NCBI RefSeq assembly: GCF_001735745.1
Contig: NZ_CP017260.1
Location: 2,370,001-2,402,000 of the forward strand
Origin: Formosa sp. Hel1_33_131
GTDB lineage: Bacteria; Bacteroidota; Bacteroidia; Flavobacteriales; Flavobacteriaceae
DNA: 32,000 nucleotides
Reading direction: 5' to 3'
Shown in pieces: positions 1-20,558 of this stretch; position 1 is the first letter of the stretch, and the number at the start of each line of letters is the position of its first letter. Below the pieces are notes generated by a model. The model had not been told where the DNA came from and ran no database searches. It saw only the letters and a list, made by a program, of their open reading frames with translations. The translations under genes were made by a program, and so were the position numbers.

Positions 1-291
1 ATTTGTATAGGCTACATCAACAGGTCTTAGTCTTATTTTGTTTTGATAATCTATAAGTGAAAATTTGTTGGGGTCAAAAGATCTTTTCTTATTATCAATC
101 ATCTCGATTCTAACTTTAATGTTGTATTGAACTATTTTTTTTGACTTTGTTCTAACATTAGTCACCGCTATTAATTGACTCGCTTTTTTAGTTTTTTCAT
201 ACTCAATAGTCAGGTTGTCCTCTTGAATTTTAATTTGAGAATAAAATACTTGAGTGAATAGGAATGCTAGTATTATTAATCTTGTTTTCAT
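1..291 (-). CDS. hypothetical exported protein, 5' part only (runs off the left edge)
   Basis: Absent from the ORF track because there is no stop codon inside the window. The minus-strand ATG (plus-strand cat at 289-291) opens MKTRLIILAFLFTQVFYSQIKIQEDNLTIEYEKTKKASQLIAVTNVRTK... The N-terminus is hydrophobic and signal-peptide-like. The frame stays open for all 97 codons down to position 1. Confidence 0.5.
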   Translation of the reverse strand, partial: MKTRLIILAFLFTQVFYSQIKIQEDNLTIEYEKTKKASQLIAVTNVRTKSKKIVQYNIKVRIEMIDNKKRSFDPNKFSLIDYQNKIRLRPVDVAYTN

Positions 292-312
292 ATTAATTTA
301 TTTTTTTTCTAT

Positions 313-350
313 TGCTGGGGCACGAGCAAAAGATGCTCGCGCTAGCGGGG
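313..350 (+). repeat. solitary REP-like hairpin repeat, variant copy
   Basis: tgctggggcacgagcaaaagatgctcgcgctagcgggg. It has the same CGAGCA/TGCTCG stem and CGCTAGCG palindrome as the four REPs that flank the RAYT genes. It differs in a 5-nt loop (AAAGA instead of AGA) and one extra G. It lies 13 nt downstream of the stop codon of the 364..1185 gene. Confidence 0.8.
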
Positions 351-363
351 TTACTCAACGTTT

Positions 364-1185
364 TTATTTGTATTCAATTTGTCTTTCCCAAACATATCCT
401 AATTCTCCTTTGGAAAACCTTTTCTTAGTAATCCAATTGTCATTCTTATCATAACTGTACTCCCAATTATTCCAATGTTTTTGTTTTCCATCCTTATCGT
501 ACCAATATTGTGTTAGGATATTATTTCGTTCATTATATGTAGAAATAAATTTTGTGTAATCACCATTTGGTCTTGTTAATTCAGATTCAATTTCATTACC
601 TTTTGTGTCATATCTATAAGTTCTTATGCCTTTTATTATTCCATCTGATTTGAAATCAGTTTCTTTAATCTTTTGGTTTTTGGAATTATATTCGTTAGTT
701 GTTTTAAAGGTTCGATTTGACTTAACACTCGATTTAGTCAATGCTATTTGATTTCCTTTAGTGTCGTATTCATTCTTTTGTAAAAAAATTAATTCATTAT
801 CAGAATTGTATGTTTTGTACTCAATAATTTTTCCATTTTCATCAAATTCAGTTGTTGTAAGTTTTTTTAGATTGCCATCTTTGTCAAAAGTGATACTTTT
901 TATAAGTTTTCCTTCTTTGTTTTTTGTGAGTTTTGTTTTTTCATAAATTGTATCATCATTTTCAAAACGCCAATATTCTATCAAATCTCCTTGTACATTA
1001 TAAATTTCCTTTCTGTTAACTTTTTGGTTTAAGGCTTTTTTACGGGTTAATTCTCCACTTCGTTTTGAACTGTATGAAGCTTCAGTAATTGTTTTAAATG
1101 TATTTGTATTTTCTTTTTTAATATTCTTTGTCGAAGAGCAAGAAAGGATTAATCCAAAAACTAATAGGTTGAGTATTATTTTCAT
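364..1185 (-). CDS. lipoprotein with YD-like beta-hairpin repeats
   Basis: 273-aa ORF. The N-terminus MKIILNLLVFGLILSCSS has a lipobox-like Cys. The body has a recurring motif: FDKDGNLKK, FDENGKIIEY, YDTKGNQIA, YRYDTKGNEIE, WYDKDGKQKH. No family assignment is possible without a database search. Confidence 0.75.
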   Translation of the reverse strand: MKIILNLLVFGLILSCSSTKNIKKENTNTFKTITEASYSSKRSGELTRKKALNQKVNRKEIYNVQGDLIEYWRFENDDTIYEKTKLTKNKEGKLIKSITFDKDGNLKKLTTTEFDENGKIIEYKTYNSDNELIFLQKNEYDTKGNQIALTKSSVKSNRTFKTTNEYNSKNQKIKETDFKSDGIIKGIRTYRYDTKGNEIESELTRPNGDYTKFISTYNERNNILTQYWYDKDGKQKHWNNWEYSYDKNDNWITKKRFSKGELGYVWERQIEYK

Positions 1186-1195
1186 AATGTTGGGT

Positions 1196-1247
1196 AACTA
1201 GTTATATCAAAACAAAAGGATGTGTTAACGGTTCTATATTTCGGATC
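1196..1247 (-). repeat. 73-nt intergenic repeat family, truncated copy a
   Basis: aactagttatatcaaaacaaaaggatgtgttaacggttctatatttcggatc aligns to the first ~52 nt of the copies at 3616..3688 and 4583..4655. The alignment stops exactly where the left REP of RAYT unit 1 begins. Confidence 0.7.
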
Positions 1248-1248
1248 G

Positions 1249-1277
1249 CCGCTAGCGCGAGCATCTTGCTCGTGCCC
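1249..1277 (-). repeat. REP hairpin (3' flank of RAYT copy 1)
   Basis: ccgctagcgcgagcatcttgctcgtgccc is the reverse complement of GGGCACGAGCAAGATGCTCGCGCTAGCGG. Confidence 0.85.
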
Positions 1278-1305
1278 TTAAACAAACTAAAGTTAGTATT
1301 TCTTC

Positions 1306-1847
1306 TCATATATCAATTTCTAAAACTGTTTGGTCTTCTTGATAATTTCTTGCACTACTATACTTCCAGTCTATTGGATCGGTAACAAAACCGCTTTCAA
1401 CAGGGTTGTTATGAATATAATCTATTTTTTGTTGTATTACTTTTTCACTCCATAATTCTATTGGTTTATTGTGTTGCTGCCAAAATTGACGTTGGTTAAC
1501 ATTGCTTTTCTTTTTACCTGCTCGTTCCATCATCCAGAATAACCACTCTTTTCTACTTTCTTGTGGATTTTCTTCTATTGATTTTATTAGTTTTCTTGCT
1601 GTAAAACCTTTAAAATCTCTTATTAATCCTGATGGATCTTCATTACTTGACCTAAATATTAAATGCACATGACTTGGCATAAAACAATAAGCAAATACTT
1701 CCATACCTTTTTCTTCTCTGCAATAATCTATACTTTCTTCTAATACATTAAAATATACTTGACGAGTAAAAATATCTAACCAATACACGGTAGCAAAACT
1801 TATAAAATAGGCTGCTGATTCGTTATGAAATTGTATTTTCTGCTCAT
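1306..1847 (-). pseudogene. REP-associated tyrosine transposase (RAYT, IS200/IS605-type Y1 HUH), frameshifted
   Basis: The protein from 1306..1788 is identical to residues 21-180 of the intact copy. The original ATG at 1847 now reads MSRKYNFITNQQPIL then stop, because the coding-strand run AAA is AA here (plus-strand ttt at 3341-3343 versus tt at 1831-1832). Confidence 0.8.
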
Positions 1848-1878
1848 AATATTATTTTTCTATCTTCTTTCTCTTGCT

Positions 1879-1909
1879 GGGCACGAGCAAGATGCTCGCG
1901 CTAGCGGGG
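1879..1909 (+). repeat. REP hairpin (5' flank of RAYT copy 1)
   Basis: gggcacgagcaagatgctcgcgctagcgggg. It contains a 6-bp stem CGAGCA/TGCTCG with loop AGA, followed by the 8-bp palindrome CGCTAGCG. Confidence 0.85.
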
Positions 1910-1923
1910 ATTGGCATCATTTT

Positions 1924-2755
1924 TTATTTTTTCAGCTCTATTATTTGTTGTTTCGCATATTCTTTTGCTCTATCATCTCCAAATTCAACAGTCTTTTCGT
2001 AATATTCGATTGCTTTTTTCTTGTCTCCTTTTAATTTATAACCTTGAGCAATATTTGAAAGAACAATATAATCTTTCGGATTAATTTTCTCAGCCCGTAA
2101 AAGTGGTTCAATTCCTTTGTCATATTCTCCCGTCAATAAATAAGTAATTGATAGATTTGATAAACTCTCAATATGATTTGGATAGAATTTCAGAACTGTG
2201 TTTGCAATTTCACGCATATTTTTGAGCAAGTTGTCATTTTCAGTATTGTATAATTGCAATTGATATGTTTGAATATCTAAAAGAAATTCTTTTTCTCCGC
2301 CATCATATTTTTCGTTGTTAGTCCAAGTCCAATTATTTCCAATTTTTGTGGAATATTCTATTGTTTTTTTAATTTCGGAAGTGAAATTTTTCCAATCAGA
2401 GACTTCTCCTAAAACATAGATTTTTCCAAATCGCATATCAAGTCTATTTGGATAAAGTTTAATTCCTTCGTTAATTTTACTTATTCCTTTTTCTAATTCT
2501 TTTTGGTCAAAATGTATTTTACTTCCTAAAAAACCTGCTGTTTGATTTAAACTATCTTTTAAAACAAGACTTTCTCCATTTGGTTCATTTGTCGACATAG
2601 CAAGAACTTCTTGCTTAGATTTCATAAAATGATAATTGAAATAACTCGTGTAAAGTTCAGCATCTTTTGGATTAGCCGAATTCCATTCAGTCAAAATTTT
2701 TAATTGATTAATAGTGTCATTAGTTTGACAATATTTTTGAAAGTCAGATTGATAG
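1924..2755 (-). pseudogene. C-terminal fragment of a TPR-repeat protein interrupted by RAYT unit 2
   Basis: The ORF-track entry 1924..2694 starts at a TTG, with no signal peptide. The frame stays open for a further 20 codons upstream (DYQSDFQKYCQTNDTINQLKI) and runs straight into the REP at 2756. The C-terminus is TPR-like (NLSITYLLTGEYDKGIEPLLRAEKINPKDYIVLSNIAQGYKLKGDKKKAIEYYEKTVE). Confidence 0.6.
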
Positions 2756-2758
2756 TCG

Positions 2759-2787
2759 CCGCTAGCGCGAGCATCTTGCTCGTGCCC
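2759..2787 (-). repeat. REP hairpin (3' flank of RAYT copy 2)
   Basis: Identical to 1249..1277. Confidence 0.85.
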
Positions 2788-2815
2788 TTAAACAAACTAA
2801 AGTTAGTATTTCTTC

Positions 2816-3358
2816 TCATATATCAATTTCTAAAACTGTTTGGTCTTCTTGATAATTTCTTGCACTACTATACTTCCAGTCTATTGGATCGGTAACAAAA
2901 CCGCTTTCAACAGGGTTGTTATGAATATAATCTATTTTTTGTTGTATTACTTTTTCACTCCATAATTCTATTGGTTTATTGTGTTGCTGCCAAAATTGAC
3001 GTTGGTTAACATTGCTTTTCTTTTTACCTGCTCGTTCCATCATCCAGAATAACCACTCTTTTCTACTTTCTTGTGGATTTTCTTCTATTGATTTTATTAG
3101 TTTTCTTGCTGTAAAACCTTTAAAATCTCTTATTAATCCTGATGGATCTTCATTACTTGACCTAAATATTAAATGCACATGACTTGGCATAAAACAATAA
3201 GCAAATACTTCCATACCTTTTTCTTCTCTGCAATAATCTATACTTTCTTCTAATACATTAAAATATACTTGACGAGTAAAAATATCTAACCAATACACGG
3301 TAGCAAAACTTATAAAATAGGCTGCTGATTCGTTATGAAATTTGTATTTTCTGCTCAT
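2816..3358 (-). CDS. REP-associated tyrosine transposase (RAYT; Y1 HUH transposase, IS200/IS605 superfamily)
   Basis: 180 aa. HUH motif in CFMPSHVHLIF. Candidate catalytic Tyr region DWKYSSARNY near the C-terminus. The size and the inverted-REP flanks match the REP/RAYT architecture. Confidence 0.9.
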   Translation of the reverse strand: MSRKYKFHNESAAYFISFATVYWLDIFTRQVYFNVLEESIDYCREEKGMEVFAYCFMPSHVHLIFRSSNEDPSGLIRDFKGFTARKLIKSIEENPQESRKEWLFWMMERAGKKKSNVNQRQFWQQHNKPIELWSEKVIQQKIDYIHNNPVESGFVTDPIDWKYSSARNYQEDQTVLEIDI

Positions 3359-3389
3359 AATATTATTTTTCTATCTTCTTTCTCTTGCT

Positions 3390-3420
3390 GGGCACGAGCA
3401 AGATGCTCGCGCTAGCGGGG
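3390..3420 (+). repeat. REP hairpin (5' flank of RAYT copy 2)
   Basis: Identical to 1879..1909. Confidence 0.85.
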
Positions 3421-3581
3421 GAATTAATTTTATTTTGCTCCAGAATTTGATTGTAGACTATGTTTAATTCGTTTTCTGATATATTGTAATTTATTTTTTC
3501 TTTTTCACTCATTTCTTGCTGAGTTTGAGAGTAGATATGTTGAGAAAAAATTAAGATTATTATCAATGTGATTTTTTTCAT
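3421..3581 (-). pseudogene. N-terminal (signal peptide) fragment of the gene interrupted by RAYT unit 2
   Basis: The ATG at 3581 gives MKKITLIIILIFSQHIYSQTQQEMSEKEKINYNISENELNIVYNQILEQNKIN. The frame then reads into the REP (SPASASILLVP...), so it has no genuine C-terminus. The ORF-track start at 3671 lies inside the 73-nt repeat and is not credible. Confidence 0.55.
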
Positions 3582-3615
3582 TTCGTTTTTGTTAGGATTT
3601 TGTTCAGCTTGTTGC

Positions 3616-3688
3616 CAACTAGTTATATCCAAATAAAATTTTGTGTTAACGGTTCTATATTCCGGGATCACATACCGTTTTGTTTGTC
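3616..3688 (-). repeat. 73-nt intergenic repeat family, copy b
   Basis: caactagttatatccaaataaaattttgtgttaacggttctatattccgggatcacataccgttttgtttgtc differs from copy c at about 6 of 73 positions. It lies 5 nt after the stop of the CoiA-like gene and 34 nt before the ATG at 3581. Confidence 0.85.
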
Positions 3689-3693
3689 ATTAT

Positions 3694-4548
3694 TTATTTT
3701 CCCTTCCACCATTTTTTCATATTATCTTTAAATATCAAACATTTAGGAACAGTCTTATCTTCATTTTCAGGTGTAAACTCCTCTCTTTCGTAACTAATAA
3801 AGTCTTTAAGGTCAATTTTCTTACCATAATTAGGTTTGAATATCGTTTTATATGTTTTATCAAAGCCTCCTTCAGTTCGTTCAGTTCCATCTTCCTCAAA
3901 CCAATGTGACTCCTCAATCCATCTGTCTGCATTGTCAAAATGTACAGGACTGACTTTTGAGCCATTCCCTTTTATCCAATAGTAAACTTTACCATAATAC
4001 ATTGAATGTAAATATTTTTCATATAATCTTGGTCTGAAATTTTCAGTACCCAAATCCTCTTTCAAAGGAACTATCCATAAAATGCTAACCTTCCGAGCGT
4101 AATATCCATTTACACGTTTAAGAATTTTTGGTAGTGTTAATGAACTTGCTTGGACTTCAATAACAATAGGTTTTCCATTTATTCTTCCGCTAATGTCTGG
4201 TGTTAATTTCTTTATGTCTTTTTCCTTATTTTCGGGTATTAATCTTTCAACTTTCCAATTCCCATCTGGAAATTCTTTTTTTAGTTCTTCACAAATTTCA
4301 GTTTTGCATTCAAAATGTAATTTCGATTCTCCACCACCATAAACAGAACTTAATCTTCCTTTATAAGCGAAATGGTCTCTTTTGTCAACACATTTTCTAA
4401 CTATCAATTCTTCAAATGTGTCTGGACAATAAAATGGTCCGTCTGATTTTTTTGCTTCATTGGCGTGAATAGGTTTATTAGTCGCACATATTTTCGCCCA
4501 ATCTTTAATTGGATGATAATTCTCTGGTTCATAAAATTCATTATCCAT
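3694..4548 (-). CDS. CoiA-like PD-(D/E)xK nuclease-domain protein
   Basis: I place the start at the ATG at 4548 (MDNEFYEPENY...). The track's upstream 30 aa are a translation of the 73-nt repeat. CoiA-like landmarks: FYCPDTFEELIVRKCVDKRDHFAYK; ESKLHFECKTEI (an H..K motif); LTPDISGRINGKPIVIEVQASSLT (a D...E-V-Q-x-S nuclease core). Confidence 0.7.
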   Translation of the reverse strand: MDNEFYEPENYHPIKDWAKICATNKPIHANEAKKSDGPFYCPDTFEELIVRKCVDKRDHFAYKGRLSSVYGGGESKLHFECKTEICEELKKEFPDGNWKVERLIPENKEKDIKKLTPDISGRINGKPIVIEVQASSLTLPKILKRVNGYYARKVSILWIVPLKEDLGTENFRPRLYEKYLHSMYYGKVYYWIKGNGSKVSPVHFDNADRWIEESHWFEEDGTERTEGGFDKTYKTIFKPNYGKKIDLKDFISYEREEFTPENEDKTVPKCLIFKDNMKKWWKGK

Positions 4549-4582
4549 TTTTAGTACTTTCTTTCGTTTTTCTAATACACCA

Positions 4583-4655
4583 CAACTAGTTATATCCAAA
4601 CAAAATCTTATGTTAACGGTTCTATATTTCGGGATCACACACCGTTTTGTTTGTC
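4583..4655 (-). repeat. 73-nt intergenic repeat family, copy c
   Basis: caactagttatatccaaacaaaatcttatgttaacggttctatatttcgggatcacacaccgttttgtttgtc. Internal inverted repeats are CAAACAAAA/TTTTGTTTG and AACGGT/ACCGTT. It ends 34 nt before the ATG at 4548. Confidence 0.85.
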
Positions 4656-4937
4656 TTTATTTTATTTTTGTAATGCCAAACCCTATCACCGCACGAAATC
4701 GAAGATTAGACGATGTCAAATCTATCGTGTGGTGAAACCCCATATCGGAACGGTTCCAACATACATGTAATCCAATAAAATAATATCTTAAGCTTCGGTT
4801 AAATTGCTTACAAAGATTTAGACTTTGGGGTCATCATCAATACTCAAATTTACACTAATTTTTTAAATGACAAAAAAACGCATCGATTTTAATAGATAAA
4901 TCTGAAATTTTATGTTGTAAAACTATTTTTCTTATAG

Positions 4938-4945
4938 TATATTTG
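4938..4945 (+). promoter_or_regulatory. Bacteroidota-type -7 promoter box (TAnnTTTG)
   Basis: TATATTTG, 25 nt upstream of the ATG at 4970. Confidence 0.4.
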
Positions 4946-4969
4946 CAGTGTAAAACAAAAGTATATACC

Positions 4970-5146
4970 ATGTTCGATTTTGATCAGTATTTAGGATTTT
5001 TAGCATTTTTATCCATATTAACCTTAGGATTTTGGTTAATGATTTTCTTATTAACCTTTGCCATTCCTTATTGGTTGGTTGGTTCTGCTTTGGAACACTT
5101 CAAAGAAAAGAGAGACGCTAAAAAAGCAAAAGCGGAAGAAGCTTAA
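4970..5146 (+). CDS. small membrane protein (58 aa)
   Basis: MFDFDQYLGFLAFLSILTLGFWLMIFLLTFAIPYWLVGSALEHFKEKRDAKKAKAEEA has two hydrophobic segments and a basic tail. I prefer the ATG at 4970 to the track's TTG at 4943, which overlaps the promoter box. A strong hairpin terminator follows. Confidence 0.5.
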   Translation: MFDFDQYLGFLAFLSILTLGFWLMIFLLTFAIPYWLVGSALEHFKEKRDAKKAKAEEA

Positions 5147-13171: not shown

Positions 13172-13513
13172 TTAAAGAATGTCCAGAATCCGCTCGTTAG
13201 GACGTCCAATAACGCCTTTGTTTTTATGGATCACAATGGGACGTTCTATGAGTTTTGGATGGGTTGCCATGGCTTTAATTATACTTTGATCTGATAATTC
13301 CTTGCCTTTGAACTCCGATTTCCATATTGCTTCATTCTTACGCACAAGATCGATGGGTGCGATGTCTAAAACTGTAATAATTTCTTTCAGTTCAGTTGCA
13401 TCCAAAGGATTGGAAATATAATCAATAACTTCATAGGGCTGTTCAGACGCTTGAACGGTTTGAAGCCCTTCACGCGATTTCCGACAGCGGTTGTTGTGGT
13501 AAATTTTTATCAT
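13172..13513 (-). CDS. ArsC/Spx-family (YffB-like) reductase-fold protein
   Basis: 113 aa. [17 protein letters not shown] has the conserved N-terminal Cys context. ...[10 protein letters not shown] is typical of the family. Its start overlaps the prfB stop (ATGA). Confidence 0.8.
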
Positions 13514-14617
13514 AACGTATCTGGTTTTTCTTTTTGTCCCATCAGCATCAGATATGCTTTTAAGAAGGGGGTGATGTCACCATTCATCACATTGTCCACA
13601 TTCCCCGTTTCTTTAGCGGTTCGCACATCTTTGACGAGTTTATAGGGATGCATGACGTAATTTCGGATTTGACTTCCCCATTCAATTTTCATTTTCCCTG
13701 CTTCAATATCTTCGCGCTGTGCCAATTGTTTTTTGAGTTCAATTTCATACAATTGCGATTTCAGCATTTGCATCGCTCTGGAACGGTTGTCGTGTTGTGA
13801 GCGTGTTTCAGAACAAGAAATTTGAATTCCCGAAGGCTTGTGGGTTAACTGTACTTTCGTTTCCACTTTATTCACGTTTTGTCCACCAGCACCACTGGAA
13901 CGCGCGGTGGTGATGTCAATATCCGCAGGGTTGATATCGATTTCGATTGTATCATCCACAAGAGGATACACATAGACCGAGGCAAAACTGGTATGGCGTT
14001 TGGCATTGCTATCAAAAGGAGAAATACGCACCAAACGATGCACGCCGTTTTCACCTTTCAACCATCCAAAAGCAAAGTCCCCTTCAATTTGAAGCGTCAC
14101 GGTTTTGATTCCAGCAACATCCCCATTTTGGAGGTTGAGCTCTTTAATTTTGAAATTATTTTTTTCTGCATACATCACATACATACGCATGAGCATATAC
14201 GCCCAATCACAACTTTCGGTACCACCAGCACCTGCTGTAATTTGTAGCACGGCACTGAGACCATCCCCTTCTTCCGAAAGCATGTTTCGGAATTCAATAT
14301 CTTCTAAATAAGTAGAGGCAAGCTCAAATTGTTTTTCAACTTCTTCAGCAGTCGTTTCTCCTTCTTTAAAAAAATCAAATAAGATTTCGAGGTCTTCTGT
14401 GTAGGTTTGCACTTTTTCAAAATCGCTCACCCATTTTTTGTTGACTCGTAAAGATTTCATGAGCAGCTCGGCTGCTTTCGAATCGTTCCAAAAATCAGGA
14501 GAAAAGGTTTTTTCTTCTTCATTTTGAATTTCGATGCGTTTGGCATCTAAGTCAAAGATACCTCCTCAACGCTCCAAGGCGCTCAAAAAGATCTTTTATG
14601 TGATCGTGTGTTATCAT
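13510..14617 (-). CDS. prfB: peptide chain release factor 2, requires a programmed +1 frameshift
   Basis: Frame 0 starts at the ATG at 14617 ([21 protein letters not shown]) and ends at an in-frame TGA (14552-14554). The +1 frame continues [37 protein letters not shown]... into the track ORF 13510..14460. SPF (RISPFD) and GGQ (SGAGGQNVN) motifs are present. Confidence 0.95.
14551..14566 (-). promoter_or_regulatory. prfB +1 frameshift cassette (SD-like AGGAGG, then TAT CTT TGA C)
   Basis: The minus strand reads AGGAGG TAT CTT TGA C. This matches the autoregulatory RF2 frameshift site known from E. coli (AGGGGG TAT CTT TGA C). Confidence 0.9.
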
Positions 14618-15764: not shown

Positions 15765-17897
15765 ATGAAACTCAAAATCTTTTCTCTAATTTTAATAAGT
15801 TCACTTTTTTCTTGTGATACTAAGACTCAGAAATCAATGTCAGAATTACCAAATGCTCCAATAGCAAAACAAATTCCTAAAAATTTAACAATGCACGACG
15901 ATGTGCGTGTTGATGAATTTTATTGGTTAAACGATAGAGAAAATCCAGAAGTGATTGACTATCTCAATAAAGAAAACGACTATTATAACGCCCATACGGG
16001 GCATACCAAAAAATTTCAAACAGATTTGTTTGATGAAATGAAGTCTAGAATTAAGGAAGATGACAGTTCAGTCCCTTATAAATATAACGGCTATTGGTAC
16101 ATTACTAAATATGAAAAAGGGAAAGATTATCCTATTTACACACGAAAAAAAGAAACTTTAGAGGCGGCAGAAGAATTGCTGTTTGATTGTAACGACATGG
16201 CCAAAGATCATTCGTATTTTAGATTGGTTGGGTTGAATATAAATTCTAATAACGATTTAATTTCTTACGGGATTGATACCACAGGCAGACGTCAATATAC
16301 ATTACACATCAAAGATCTTAAAACCAATGAAGTTTTTAAGGATGAAATTTCTAATACAACGGGTGGCAGTACTTGGGCAAATGACAACAAAACCTTGTTT
16401 TATACGCTGAAAGACGAAACAACGTTGCGTTCCGAAGCGATCTATAAACACCGATTGAATACAGATCCAAAATCAGATGAATTGATTTATGAAGAAACAG
16501 ACGACACTTTTGGAGTCAGTGTTTATAAAACCAAATCTGACAAATATTTGGTCATTGCGAGTTACAGTACCTTAACATCGGAATATCAGATTTTAAATGC
16601 TAATACTCCTGATGGCGATTTCAAAATATTTCAAGCGAGAACTCGAGGTTTAGAATATGGTATTTCTCATTTTGAAGACTCCTTTTATGTCGTCTCAAAT
16701 GCCGATGGCGCTCAAAACTTTAAGCTATCAAAAACATCGGAAACACAAACTGAAAAAAAATATTGGAAAGATGTGATTCCGCATCGAGAAGCGGTATTGT
16801 TGGAAGACATCGAAATATTTAAAGACTTTTTAGTGGTTTCAGAGCGTGAAAACGGATTGAATCACATCCACATCAAACGTTGGGACGGAACTGATAGTTA
16901 CTACCTTCCTTTTGACAGTGAAACTTATACAGCTTACACCACTACGAATATTGATTTTGACACCACTGTTTTACGATACGGCTATCAGTCTTTGACCACA
17001 CCTTCTTCTGTGATTGATTTTGACATGGTGACGAAAACCAAAACCGTTCAAAAAGAACAAGAAGTATTGGGAGGAAAGTTTAAAAAAGAAAATTATACGT
17101 CTGAACGTTTGTGGGCGACCGCTGTGGATGGGACTCAAATCCCAATCTCTTTAATACGCCGTGTGGATACTAAAAAATCATCTGACACTCCTTTGTTATT
17201 ATATGCTTATGGATCTTATGGAAGCACAATTGACCCGTATTTCTCCACGGTTCGAATGAGTCTTTTAGACCGTGGGTTTATTTTTGCAATTGCACACATT
17301 AGAGGGGGACAGTATTTAGGTCGTCAATGGTATGAAGATGGAAAACTATTTAAAAAGAAAAATACCTTTTCAGATTTTGTGGACTGTTCAAAATATTTAA
17401 TTGAAAACAATTATACCTCTGCTAAGCATCATTATGCGATGGGTGGGAGTGCTGGTGGATTGTTGATGGGAGCGATTATCAATTTAGCTCCTGAATTATA
17501 CAATGGCGTCGTAGCGCAGGTGCCTTTTGTAGATGTCGTCACCACCATGTTAGACGATAGTATTCCGTTGACCACAGGAGAGTATGACGAGTGGGGGAAT
17601 CCTAACGAAAAAGACTACTACGAGTATATGAAATCGTATTCACCTTATGATAATATTTCCAATAAATCGTACCCTAATATGTTAGTGACCACGGGACTGC
17701 ACGATTCACAAGTTCAGTATTGGGAGCCGGCTAAATGGGTGGCGCGCTTGAGAGCACAGAATAAAAACACGTCTCAACTGTATCTTCAAACCAATATGGA
17801 GGCAGGACATGGAGGTGCTTCTGGACGTTTTGAAGCTCTGAAAGAAGTGGCAGCAGAGTATGCGTTTTTATTAGATCTTGAATCGATTTCAAAATAG
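15765..17897 (+). CDS. ptrB: oligopeptidase B (S9A serine protease), lipoprotein-type signal
   Basis: 710 aa. The N-terminus PIAKQIPKNLTMHDDVRVDEFYWLNDRENPEVIDYLNKEN parallels E. coli PtrB. Catalytic Ser in GGSAGGLLMG. Asp and His regions are LHDSQV and EAGHGG. Confidence 0.9.
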   Translation: MKLKIFSLILISSLFSCDTKTQKSMSELPNAPIAKQIPKNLTMHDDVRVDEFYWLNDRENPEVIDYLNKENDYYNAHTGHTKKFQTDLFDEMKSRIKEDDSSVPYKYNGYWYITKYEKGKDYPIYTRKKETLEAAEELLFDCNDMAKDHSYFRLVGLNINSNNDLISYGIDTTGRRQYTLHIKDLKTNEVFKDEISNTTGGSTWANDNKTLFYTLKDETTLRSEAIYKHRLNTDPKSDELIYEETDDTFGVSVYKTKSDKYLVIASYSTLTSEYQILNANTPDGDFKIFQARTRGLEYGISHFEDSFYVVSNADGAQNFKLSKTSETQTEKKYWKDVIPHREAVLLEDIEIFKDFLVVSERENGLNHIHIKRWDGTDSYYLPFDSETYTAYTTTNIDFDTTVLRYGYQSLTTPSSVIDFDMVTKTKTVQKEQEVLGGKFKKENYTSERLWATAVDGTQIPISLIRRVDTKKSSDTPLLLYAYGSYGSTIDPYFSTVRMSLLDRGFIFAIAHIRGGQYLGRQWYEDGKLFKKKNTFSDFVDCSKYLIENNYTSAKHHYAMGGSAGGLLMGAIINLAPELYNGVVAQVPFVDVVTTMLDDSIPLTTGEYDEWGNPNEKDYYEYMKSYSPYDNISNKSYPNMLVTTGLHDSQVQYWEPAKWVARLRAQNKNTSQLYLQTNMEAGHGGASGRFEALKEVAAEYAFLLDLESISK

Positions 17898-18988: not shown

Positions 18989-19015
18989 TTGTAATACATT
19001 ACCAAAACCTCAAAT

Positions 19016-19465
19016 ATGAAATTTAAATACATTGAAATTAAAGACGCTTATTGAGAGATTAAAAAATTTCTTGAACACGCTTCAGGTGAGAAAATAAATA
19101 ATCTGAATACCAAAATTGTTGATGACTTAAAATTTTTGGGCGATGATAATTATTTCTTACTTATTGAATTTATTGAAAAATATAATTTGAATTTCGATAA
19201 GTTCGAATATGATAAACACTTTGAATCCGAGGGCGATTTCATTGGATTCAAAAATCTGGTACTTGGACTTTTAAAATTGCCTGTATTGATAATAAACAGC
19301 TTAATTATAAAATACTTTTCGATAACTCTATATATTAGGATTGATAATTTTTTCTTTGATAGAACAAATGAGAAAAAAGATTTGACATTTGGTGATTTGA
19401 TTTTAAGTAAGCTAAAGTGGGAATTCTGTCTTAGAGATGAATGTAGAGTTCAACTTGCAAAATAA
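19016..19465 (+). pseudogene. DUF1493-like small protein with an in-frame TGA at codon 13
   Basis: The ATG at 19016 gives MKFKYIEIKDAY, then TGA (19052-19054). The same frame continues EIKKFLEHASGEKINNLNTKIVDDLKFLGDDNYFLLIEFIEKYNLNFDKFEYDKHFESEG... into the track ORF 19136..19465. The DL.F.GDD...F.EKY...F.F..YF..EG pattern resembles DUF1493; that recognition is from memory. Confidence 0.5.
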
Positions 19466-19719
19466 AGACACTACTATACGGAGTTTGAAACTTAGCTAAC
19501 AAGAGCTAATACAAAATTGAAGTATTAAAAAAAAATGGTATAGGAATAATGGTAATTGATACAGCACCAAAAGAAATTGAAAAAATGAGAAAAGAAACAC
19601 TTGATGAAGTTAAAGAATTTGCAAAAGAAAATGGTGTCGATTTTTGGTATTGTTCTTGATTTAGAACTTAAAATCGAGCAATAAATCAAACTTTATTAAA
19701 AAAATATTATCTTTGGTAT

Positions 19720-19965
19720 ATGAAAACGACAGATTTAAATACCGCATTACTTGATAATTATTTTGGACTTATAAAAAATTTAAGTCCAGAAATTAAAATT
19801 AATTTAATCGAAAAAATCGCAAAAACCTTGAAAGGAAATGTTACAAGCAGTAACAGTTCATTAACTGATGCATTTGGTGCGTGGAAATCAAAAAAATCAG
19901 CAGATGAAATATTAATTGAATTAAGAGATCACAGAAATTTCGATAGACAAATTGAAGCTTTATAA
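19720..19965 (+). CDS. antitoxin partner of the PIN toxin (VapB-like role)
   Basis: 81-aa ORF whose stop overlaps the PIN gene start (TAATG). The C-terminus ...FGAWKSKKSADEILIELRDHRNFDRQIEAL is typical of the small antitoxins found upstream of Bacteroidota PIN genes. Assigned from context. Confidence 0.6.
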   Translation: MKTTDLNTALLDNYFGLIKNLSPEIKINLIEKIAKTLKGNVTSSNSSLTDAFGAWKSKKSADEILIELRDHRNFDRQIEAL

Positions 19966-20360
19966 TGAAATGTTTATTAGACACAAATATTTCTATTTAC
20001 TTTATGAAAGGTCTTTATAATCTTGATGAAAAAATCAAAAAGGCAGGAATTGAAAATTGTTATATTTCTGAAATAACACTTGCCGAGTTGAAATTCGGAG
20101 TTGAAAACAGTGAACAAAAAAAGAAAAATAAAGAAGTATTAGATAATTTCATAAACGGAATTAAAATTGTTCCTATTTATAACTCTCTTGACTTTTATGC
20201 AATTGAAAAAGCAAGATTAAGAAAAAACGGAAATACTGTAGATGATTTTGATTTGTTAATTGGAGCAAGTGCTGTTTCAAATAACATGACGCTTGTAACA
20301 AATAACATCAAGCATTTCAAAAATATTAAAAATATTGAAATTCAAGATTGGACGCAATAA
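19965..20360 (+). CDS. vapC: type II toxin VapC (PIN-domain ribonuclease)
   Basis: 131 aa. Acidic PIN residues fall in the expected places: LLDTN (D6), ISEITLAEL (E), DDFDLLIGASAV (D), and a LVTNNIKHF tail. Confidence 0.85.
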   Translation: MKCLLDTNISIYFMKGLYNLDEKIKKAGIENCYISEITLAELKFGVENSEQKKKNKEVLDNFINGIKIVPIYNSLDFYAIEKARLRKNGNTVDDFDLLIGASAVSNNMTLVTNNIKHFKNIKNIEIQDWTQ

Positions 20361-20558
20361 AAAACACAAAGAAGGTTTATCAACTGATTTGGAAACAGCG
20401 AAAGAAATTGAACAGAAGTTAGAAGAACATCGCAATAGTAAAAACTAAATTCAAGGTATATAAACCAATTAGCCTCCACTTTCTTAATTCAAATCATTCA
20501 CACAGGGTTCATATCTGTTTAATTGCTTAAATTATTATGTATTCATAATATTATTGTA

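Follow-up and report, generated by a model that had tools for sequence, protein, structure and literature searches.

Integrons are the textbook device by which bacteria capture genes and express them, and the locus described here raises the question of whether something comparable is at work in a flavobacterium. At one end of a 32,000-nt stretch of the chromosome of Formosa sp. Hel1_33_131 (NZ_CP017260.1, positions 2,370,001 to 2,402,000; hereafter the window), a repeat that we call R occurs three times in front of genes that have little in common. An earlier reading of this DNA, made from the letters alone and called here the sequence-only reading, had described R as a 73-mer with an imperfect palindrome separating ~1-kb single-gene units, and had likened the region to an array of integron cassettes. 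What, then, does R do? Our preferred answer, to which we give a probability of roughly 0.55, is that R is the docking (attI-like) site of a small integron-like chromosomal cassette platform.

A fixed promoter and repeat in front of variable genes

A repeat search of the window placed members of one family, all in a single orientation, at 1195-1279 (copy A, truncated), 3616-3700 (copy B) and 4583-4667 (copy C). A profile built from the copies (nhmmer) matched just these three sites, and the 12-mer core of R, GAACCGTTAACA, occurs exactly three times. The three co-oriented copies of the sequence-only reading, one of them truncated, are thereby borne out, as is the distance of 967 nt between C and B (2421 nt from B to A). 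The full copies B and C are 91% identical over 85 nt, and the similarity reaches ~12-27 nt further upstream than first reported (to 3700 and to ~4683). In both, 34 nt separate the end of the repeat from the next ATG (3581 and 4548), as had been described, and copy A ends 10 nt before its own ATG (1185); the reported 5-nt gap between a stop codon and the repeat is seen at copy B, which starts at this distance past the stop codon of a CoiA-like gene (3694-3696). Copy A was cut at 1246/1247 by the insertion of a REP-associated tyrosine transposase (RAYT) unit with its repetitive extragenic palindromes (REPs). Its full form is present in L008 (contigs and loci used for comparison carry L numbers), where it retains the 27-nt upstream extension of the backbone copy, C. 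A start so close behind a stop codon, together with the hairpin potential of R, would suit an intrinsic terminator or an insulator between transcription units, but no gene precedes the first copy, a U-tract is missing, the weak stems are not conserved, and the genes downstream lack promoters of their own; we regard such a role as very improbable.

The copies of R lie in an island beside a gene for a TonB-dependent receptor that is 80-88% identical to those of related Flavobacteriaceae metagenome-assembled genomes. The ancestral arrangement of the family consists of the receptor, a small open reading frame (ORF) on the opposite strand, ~140 nt, and fumC. In the Formosa clade the small-ORF/fumC intergenic region has been duplicated, and its two copies flank a non-coding segment (U), the variable island and a DUF2721 gene. 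The copy beside the small ORF contains a predicted promoter, P_U, of the Bacteroidetes type, whose consensus is TTTG at -33 and TAnnTTTG at -7. P_U aligns with the fumC promoter of relatives, is kept in all clade members, and is the sole TTG-N(16-22)-TAnnTTTG on the sense strand of the island in 1-5000. Judging by the sequence, it would read into the co-oriented genes, which have no canonical promoter of their own, and the earlier description of same-orientation, promoterless-looking ORFs therefore stands. The leader that follows P_U is also present in the more distant L009; it has no consensus structure and no match in Rfam. The island is AT-rich, as had been noted, with a G+C content of ~0.28-0.32 in 1-5000 vs ~0.35-0.42 over most of the remaining window. 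Two candidates were set aside in this comparison: expansions of the same intergenic region in other genera proved to be ordinary opposite-strand genes, a different phenomenon, and a TAGTT at the stop codon of the DUF2721 gene, taken as the far end of the array, is also found in the empty locus, varies with the codons and was not relied on.

Between these flanks the genes change from genome to genome. Cassette content was variable and the platform fixed when the window was compared both with other contigs of the species (L002, L007, L008, L092, L095 and L105) and with the loci of related species (L010-L016), so that the variation of unit content around a constant repeat and flank, a check proposed by the sequence-only reading, was indeed found. 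Within the species, U and R are followed by a gene for a 420-aa protein in L002 and L007 and by an intact TPR gene (297 aa) in L105, and other combinations include genes for LprI, TonB_C, an outer-membrane beta-barrel protein and a GIY-YIG protein. Among the related species, the island of L010 is essentially empty, those of L012 and L013 hold one gene each, that of L011 two, and that of L015 four, which form two cassette units; the defence candidate PDC-S18 is found in L014, and L016 has a type II methyltransferase, a frameshifted restriction enzyme and a 141-aa ORF. All these genes are co-oriented with P_U and low in GC, and each occupied island (L011-L016) has a different set.

Three further observations concern the contigs of this comparison. 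In L001/L102 (1-9900 of a 12.6-kb contig) a 3' fragment of a RAYT gene links the lipoprotein cassette to an unrelated region with a TonB receptor and a helix-turn-helix protein; the contig represents either a strain with a rearrangement or a chimeric assembly at the repeated RAYT. A second intergenic repeat, CCCCCGTATTCTATGATTAAAACAYGCAAYTAAT..., ending CAAC-GTT or CCC-GTT, is found in L095 (1012-1066), L002 (3834-3890) and L007 (1547-1560), after the genes for the TPR protein, a 206-aa protein and, in part, the 420-aa protein in different strains. A 106-aa ORF of L008 (2066-2386, minus strand) has a Cas9-like RuvC-I motif (LGLDLGTNSIGWA) at its start, continues as a hydrophobic sequence, and is probably a gene fragment.

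The junction core and the breakpoint after GTT

The last 16 nt of R (GGATATAAC-TA-GTT) are the same element as a core retained in related islands. In the occupied islands L011-L015 a short palindrome is followed by ATAT(A/C)(A/C)(A)(C/G)TAGTT, 19-42 nt before the first gene, and all occupied related islands have a ATATnnnTAGTT motif 10-45 nt ahead of their first gene. TAGTTG is found within 60 nt upstream of 10 of the 22 island genes and of none of 101 control genes, and the shorter GTTG of 13 of the 22 against 9 of the 101. The comparison with L105, a metagenome strain, gives the breakpoint to the nucleotide: its R is exactly copy C, and the two sequences diverge right after ...CTAGTT, to continue as CTAT... 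before the TPR gene in L105 and as GTGG... before the CoiA-like gene in the window. The first R therefore belongs to the backbone, and the cargo was exchanged at GTT. At an unrelated locus (L107), a TAnnTTTG box is directly followed by TATATAC-TA-GTT|GGCAGTAATAC, the first unit ends in GTACTACTGCCAAC (13/14 complementarity), and about nine co-oriented small genes come after it; no integrase was found at this locus either.

Could the copies be functionless and neutral, left behind by segmental duplications in a hotspot that is rich in REPs and prone to recombination? Recombination between RAYT copies has demonstrably reshaped this island, as it accounts for the deletions in L003-L005, which differ from the window by simple RAYT-RAYT homologous deletions, and for a chimera of LprI and TPR genes in the window itself; moreover, the array is visibly decayed. 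Such a hotspot would not be expected, however, to keep the core across species whose TonB receptors are 80-88% identical and whose surrounding non-coding DNA has diverged, to show the same core again at the unrelated locus L107, or to place copies with sharp boundaries before unrelated genes, and we hold this explanation to be improbable.

Complementary cassette ends

Many units carry, 6-22 nt past the stop codon, an NNACAAC box followed after ~4 nt by a TRTATA box, a layout that mirrors, in inverted form, the TATAYAC-(2-5 nt)-GTTGNNN upstream. In five of the eight units with an ACAAC box, the four nucleotides that follow GTT and the four that precede AAC are reverse complements (permutation P about 0.001): GTAG and CTAC in the L012 unit and in unit 1 of L015, GTGG and CCAC in the L013 unit, GTAA and TTAC in the L009 unit, and GTGT and ACAC in the restriction-modification unit of L016. 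Over a longer span, 11-13 of 14 terminal nucleotides are complementary in 6 of 16 units, a level reached by 2% of mismatched unit pairs, and the L013 unit attains 14/15 with one indel when its ends are read by eye. An unconstrained search for inverted pairs of GTT... and ...AAC had too high a background in AT-rich DNA; only the complementarity test anchored at gene boundaries was counted as meaningful. The units share no more than their first five nucleotides, GTTGT, and the remainder of each end is unit-specific yet self-complementary, which argues for the recognition of a paired structure and not for a transposase-type inverted repeat.

The sole unit of the window with both cassette ends is that of a lipoprotein gene, with 11/14 terminal complementarity. 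A homologue of the lipoprotein (68% identical) in L108 has the ends ATTAGACAACATT / AACGTTGTCTAAT, and two compensatory changes keep the pairing: ACCC/GGGT in the window and L008 vs AGAC/GTCT in L108.

Hairpin sites and group II introns in relatives

Three sites between units of related islands (Table 1) consist of an AAC box, a spacer, a long imperfect stem, a variable loop, the other arm of the stem, a spacer and a GTT box, their outer parts reading ...AAC - about 4 nt - TRTATA... and ...TATAYAC - 2-5 nt - GTT.... Two of them, L016c and L108c, are homologous and have a 17-bp stem with three compensatory pairs and two conserved mismatches or interruptions. Imperfect hairpins are thus found at the relatives' sites (L015, L016 and L108), with covariation between L016c and L108c, whereas the changes in the stem of R in the window break pairs.

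L108 also contains a group II intron (~2830-4868, minus strand, Rfam RF02001, 108 bits), opposite to the cassette strand, whose 5' end abuts the AAC box and whose 383-aa reverse transcriptase has the RVT_1 and GIIM domains and no endonuclease domain. A truncated group II intron remnant lies in the L016 island (~15990-16650), again on the opposite strand. Introns of the group IIC-attC type are described as entering attC sites on their bottom strand, against the direction in which the cassettes are transcribed and between gene and attC (PMC3001079), and the position of the L108 intron, as annotated here, matches this behaviour.

R as a probable attI-like docking site

Does R itself have the properties of these hairpin sites? 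The R copies of the window fold weakly, as RNA or as DNA (z 0.5 to -2.2, not better than shuffles). The R variants (copies A, B and C of the window and those of L002, L008, L009 and L016) share the blocks GACAAACAAAA, ATATAGAACCGTTAACA, TTTT.TT and ATATAAC.AGTT, and their changes in either predicted stem break pairs, with none compensating; the inner stem ACGGT/ACCGTT of the sequence-only reading is not kept in L002, L008 and L009. Because sequence blocks are conserved without structural covariation, R looks attI-like and not like each gene's own attC. The former kind of site is sequence-specific, double-stranded and furnished with accessory repeats, and the latter is structure-specific. The earlier proposal of an integron-cassette array, or of clusters of attC sites lacking an integron-integrase (CALIN), is partly supported: its variable content stands and is joined by the GTT.../...AAC ends, but the 73-mer is not the attC of each cassette, since it travels with the backbone (L105), shows no compensatory changes in its stems and has a left end without complementarity to the 5' end of the CoiA-like gene that precedes it. 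R contains two direct half-sites, AATATAGAAC-C-GTT and GATATAAC-TA-GTT, 32 nt apart. A full homologue among the related species (L010-L016) is found only in L016, where it is orthologous and diverged. A dif/Xer-like site, TTAACATAA, is present in copy C only and was judged a coincidence.

If R is a docking site, cassettes would circularise, and a folded single-stranded site would recombine with the double-stranded core of R at or next to G|TT. Catalysis would fall to a recombinase whose gene lies elsewhere (an IntI-like tyrosine recombinase or another enzyme), and the inserted genes would then be expressed from P_U. The upstream half-site, a direct repeat of the one in the core, may serve to bind additional recombinase subunits, as the direct repeats of attI1 do. 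Copies B and A, inside the array, would be duplicated docking sites, probably produced by unequal or REP/RAYT-assisted recombination between alleles, or else by site-by-site recombination, and the array, which in the window is small and decayed, would later have been blurred by decay and by illegitimate events, to which we count the CoiA gene and the RAYT chimera.

Part of this evidence could also describe a cis-acting expression element (a leader, a hairpin for the processing or stabilisation of RNA, or the operator of a regulator), kept by selection ahead of the island genes, whose copies were spread incidentally by ordinary homologous or illegitimate recombination between alleles; a role as a shared leader was raised by the sequence-only reading. 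R always lies between P_U and a start codon, 10-34 nt from the latter (87 nt in L016), it keeps sequence blocks and not pairs, its direct half-sites are three helical turns apart, as in an operator, the likeness of some 5' untranslated regions continues past GTT, and copy B and the CoiA gene meet at a microhomology, AAAATAAATAA. We nevertheless find this role unlikely, as it leaves unexplained the unit-specific complementarity of the GTT.../...AAC ends with its compensatory changes, the exact breakpoint after GTT, the attC-like hairpins and the insertion of the intron, and as R has no TAnnTTTG (σA-type) promoter box, no significant fold and no Rfam match. In Rfam 15 nothing in the window reached the gathering score, and positions 3500-5000 had no match even at E values up to 5, which also removes support from a known Rfam family, another alternative raised earlier; a tRNA/tmRNA search gave no match either.

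Slightly less likely again, in our judgement, is a small non-autonomous mobile element that landed between genes, be it a miniature inverted-repeat transposable element (MITE) or a palindrome moved by a Y1/HUH enzyme such as the RAYTs of the island. R is imperfectly palindromic, its outer arms being 9 bp long, two RAYT genes and numerous REPs share its island, and REPs are repeatedly found right behind AAC boxes. But an element of this kind would hardly be limited to three copies in one locus and one orientation: the exact two-block pattern of R had 0 matches in 185,579 species genomes and in viral contigs, and the three contigs matched in a scan of a metagenome subset (L007-L009) are all this locus, so that the MITE proposed as an alternative by the sequence-only reading finds no support. 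(A viral match to a looser pattern was judged random.) In addition, no target-site duplications flank the copies, the conservation runs past the palindrome into the junction core, other species have the core without the palindrome, and the sequence of R is unrelated to the three REP types seen.

Several observations weigh against R as a docking site. First, no gene for a recombinase was found in the window (32 kb) or up to 10 kb from nine related loci, in a scan that covered, with Pfam, the island genes and the main ORFs of the window (those of 100 aa or more beyond 8 kb), with precomputed Pfam hits used for the biotin synthase and the TonB receptor, and, at the related loci, island ORFs or called genes; the absence of an integrase from the window had been stated correctly. 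Second, we know of no integron with repeated attI-like sites inside its array. Third, the genes for CoiA, LprI, TPR, TonB_C and the 420-aa protein lack matching ends, and the last gene of the window array is followed by neither R nor a hairpin site. Fourth, the boxes NYACAAC/GTTGKNN meet the canonical RYYYAAC/GTTRRRY at the AAC/GTT triplets only, in keeping with the mismatch already noted from the sequence. Fifth, several spacers between the units of L107 do not fold, and in some pairs (L011/L014, L009/L015) the 5' untranslated regions remain alike past GTT. R seems confined to one locus, between the small ORF and fumC, a statement that covers the window, one metagenome-subset scan and the contigs from protein look-ups.

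A wider and more speculative reading would see here an unrecognised cassette-capture system of marine Flavobacteriaceae, in which a duplicated housekeeping promoter and a short docking core of defined sequence, TATAWAC-TA-GTT, recruit structure-defined GTT...AAC cassettes whose ends pair over a long, unit-specific stretch, and in which the servicing recombinase is not a linked IntI but, for example, a Xer-like enzyme or a single-strand enzyme of HUH/RAYT type. The system would then be an independent or deeply diverged counterpart of the integron. We find this possible, though doubtful. A conserved platform of attC-like cassettes with no linked integrase would extend cassette biology to Bacteroidetes through abundant, bloom-associated relatives of Formosa, offer a concrete locus and junction sequence for a recombinase hunt, and account for the turnover of defence and immunity genes between co-occurring strains; metagenomes of the Helgoland time series would allow a direct test of cassette gain and loss.

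Comparison with integrons and other arrays

In the largest survey, integrons were nearly absent from Bacteroidetes (PMC9024848), and our literature search found no paper on native integrons in Flavobacteriaceae. The platform resembles an integron by: 1) a fixed promoter reading into co-oriented, promoterless, strain-variable genes; 2) the GTT junction and the complementary cassette ends around GTT/AAC triplets; 3) imperfect hairpin sites with conserved mismatches and covariation, in relatives; 4) a group II intron on the bottom strand at the start of a hairpin site (L108); and 5) a cargo enriched in defence-type genes, as reported for sedentary integrons. It differs in that no intI gene lies beside it, the Formosa platform promoter is that of a housekeeping gene (fumC) in duplicate, the boxes depart from RYYYAAC/GTTRRRY and the L boxes are TATA-rich, the terminal pairing spans 11-14 nt instead of 7, and the docking site is repeated inside the Formosa array.

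As a short, partly degraded array without integrase, it also recalls a CALIN; however, the R copies of the window do not behave as attC sites, and the promoter and docking site are kept across species, so that the array does not look like a mere remnant. Closer in phylogeny are the recombinase-associated arrays (rAID-1) of Bacteroidales, with conserved intergenic motifs "reminiscent of integrons" (bioRxiv 10.1101/471110; PMC12247911). They belong to the same phylum and likewise consist of co-oriented, short, low-GC genes with conserved intergenic motifs, and some cargo here is immunity-like (LprI, the RHS/YD-repeat lipoprotein). Yet rAID-1 is headed by a XerD-family recombinase and the Formosa array by P_U and its non-coding leader, and the cargo here is mostly of anti-phage or nuclease type; this comparison was made by description. 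Finally, REPs, the mosaic elements that they form (BIMEs) and RAYTs are found in the same island and are also palindromic intergenic repeats, but R is unrelated to them in sequence and one of its copies was destroyed by a RAYT/REP insertion.

Genes and repeats of the island

The features of the island and the hairpin sites of its relatives are collected in Table 1.

Table 1. Features of the window (positions 1 to 5000) and attC-like sites of related islands
Feature	Position	Strand	Remarks
206-aa exported protein gene, start	1..291	-	runs off the window; DUF2721 (opposite strand) and then fumC come next in the genome (L006, L007)
Solo REP	305..349	.	inserted directly after the AAC box of the lipoprotein cassette
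Lipoprotein cassette	350..1198	-	ORF 1185-364; weak RHS/YD-repeat match; 5' end GTTACCCAACATT (1198-1186), 3' end AACGTTGAGTAAC (362-350)
R copy A	1196..1247	-	5' part removed by RAYT1/REP insertion; junction GTT 1198-1196
RAYT1 unit	1246..1911	-	differs from RAYT2 only by a 1-nt deletion at codon 6; inverted REPs on both sides; Y1_Tnp
TPR gene, 5'-truncated	1924..2755	-	first 20 codons gone; Pfam TPR
RAYT2 unit	2756..3420	-	intact 180-aa Y1 transposase, inverted REPs on both sides; Y1_Tnp
LprI-family lipoprotein, 5' fragment	3421..3581	-	53 codons; cut by RAYT2
R copy B	3616..3700	-	between CoiA-like gene and LprI fragment; junction GTT 3619-3617
CoiA-like nuclease gene	3694..4548	-	first cargo gene; Pfam CoiA_nuc; no matching 3' AAC box
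R copy C	4583..4683	-	first-noted 4583-4655 plus 27-nt upstream extension GGTTTGGCATTACAAAAATAAAATAAA; backbone copy beside the promoter region
Junction core of copy C	4584..4597	-	sense GGATATAAC-TA-GTT; GTT 4586-4584, cargo-specific sequence from 4583
REP-like inverted pair	4682..4742	-	between leader and copy C; read directly from the sequence
Non-coding leader, ~85 nt	4760..4844	-	downstream of P_U; >90% identical among species
P_U, predicted Bacteroidetes-type promoter	4845..4874	-	-33 TTTG 4874-4871, 18-nt spacer, -7 TAAATTTG 4852-4845
Small-ORF/fumC intergenic region, copy 1	4845..4966	-	beside the small ORF; copy 2 before fumC, beyond the window start
attC-like site, L015	L015 13766..13890		between its two units; DNA fold -18.9 kcal/mol, z -2.6
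attC-like site, L016c	L016 15294..15415		after the restriction-modification unit; DNA fold -16.2 kcal/mol, z -2.4
attC-like site, L108c	L108 4868..4986		before the lipoprotein homologue; DNA fold -14.4 kcal/mol, z -2.7

Seen against these features, the ~1-kb single-gene units of the sequence-only reading do not hold overall. Both cassette ends are present in the lipoprotein unit alone. The middle unit is a chimera, made by RAYT2, in which the first 53 codons of an LprI-family gene (intact in L092/L093; 154 aa, PF07007) are joined to the truncated TPR gene, so that the exported TPR protein reported from this unit is not one gene. The homology of the CoiA gene to its relatives elsewhere spans only ~-20 to the stop codon, and this extent, with the microhomology shared with copy B, makes the gene look like an illegitimate capture. 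Homologues of this CoiA-like gene are found in the defence islands of other bacteria, beside CBASS, Hachiman and type ISP systems. In two of the contigs compared (L099 5606-5965 and L100 5615-5974) a conserved gene for a 119-aa protein, absent from the window, precedes the CoiA-like gene, which points to a two-gene module of which the window captured one half only.

The two RAYT units, recognised in the sequence-only reading, are confirmed as Y1_Tnp, and RAYT1 is probably a pseudogene because of its deletion. In the other 27 kb of the window no REPs were seen. REPs of the three sequence types very often sit immediately after AAC boxes 3' of island genes (window 305-349, L095 1610-1740, L011 14610-14760 and L008 990-1050), with the junctions GAGTAAC|CCC, TTAAAC|CC, GTAAAC|CCCC and GGTAAC|CCCCC, as if REPs targeted or replaced the hairpin sites.

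Two observations concern the rest of the window. A second patch of low GC (0.26) at 19000-20500, among housekeeping genes, holds a gene for a PIN-domain protein (19965-20360) and small ORFs, contains neither R nor the junction core, and is probably a toxin-antitoxin insertion. At 13510-14460, the ORF of release factor 2 begins at position 31 of the PCRF profile, presumably in line with the usual programmed +1 frameshift upstream.

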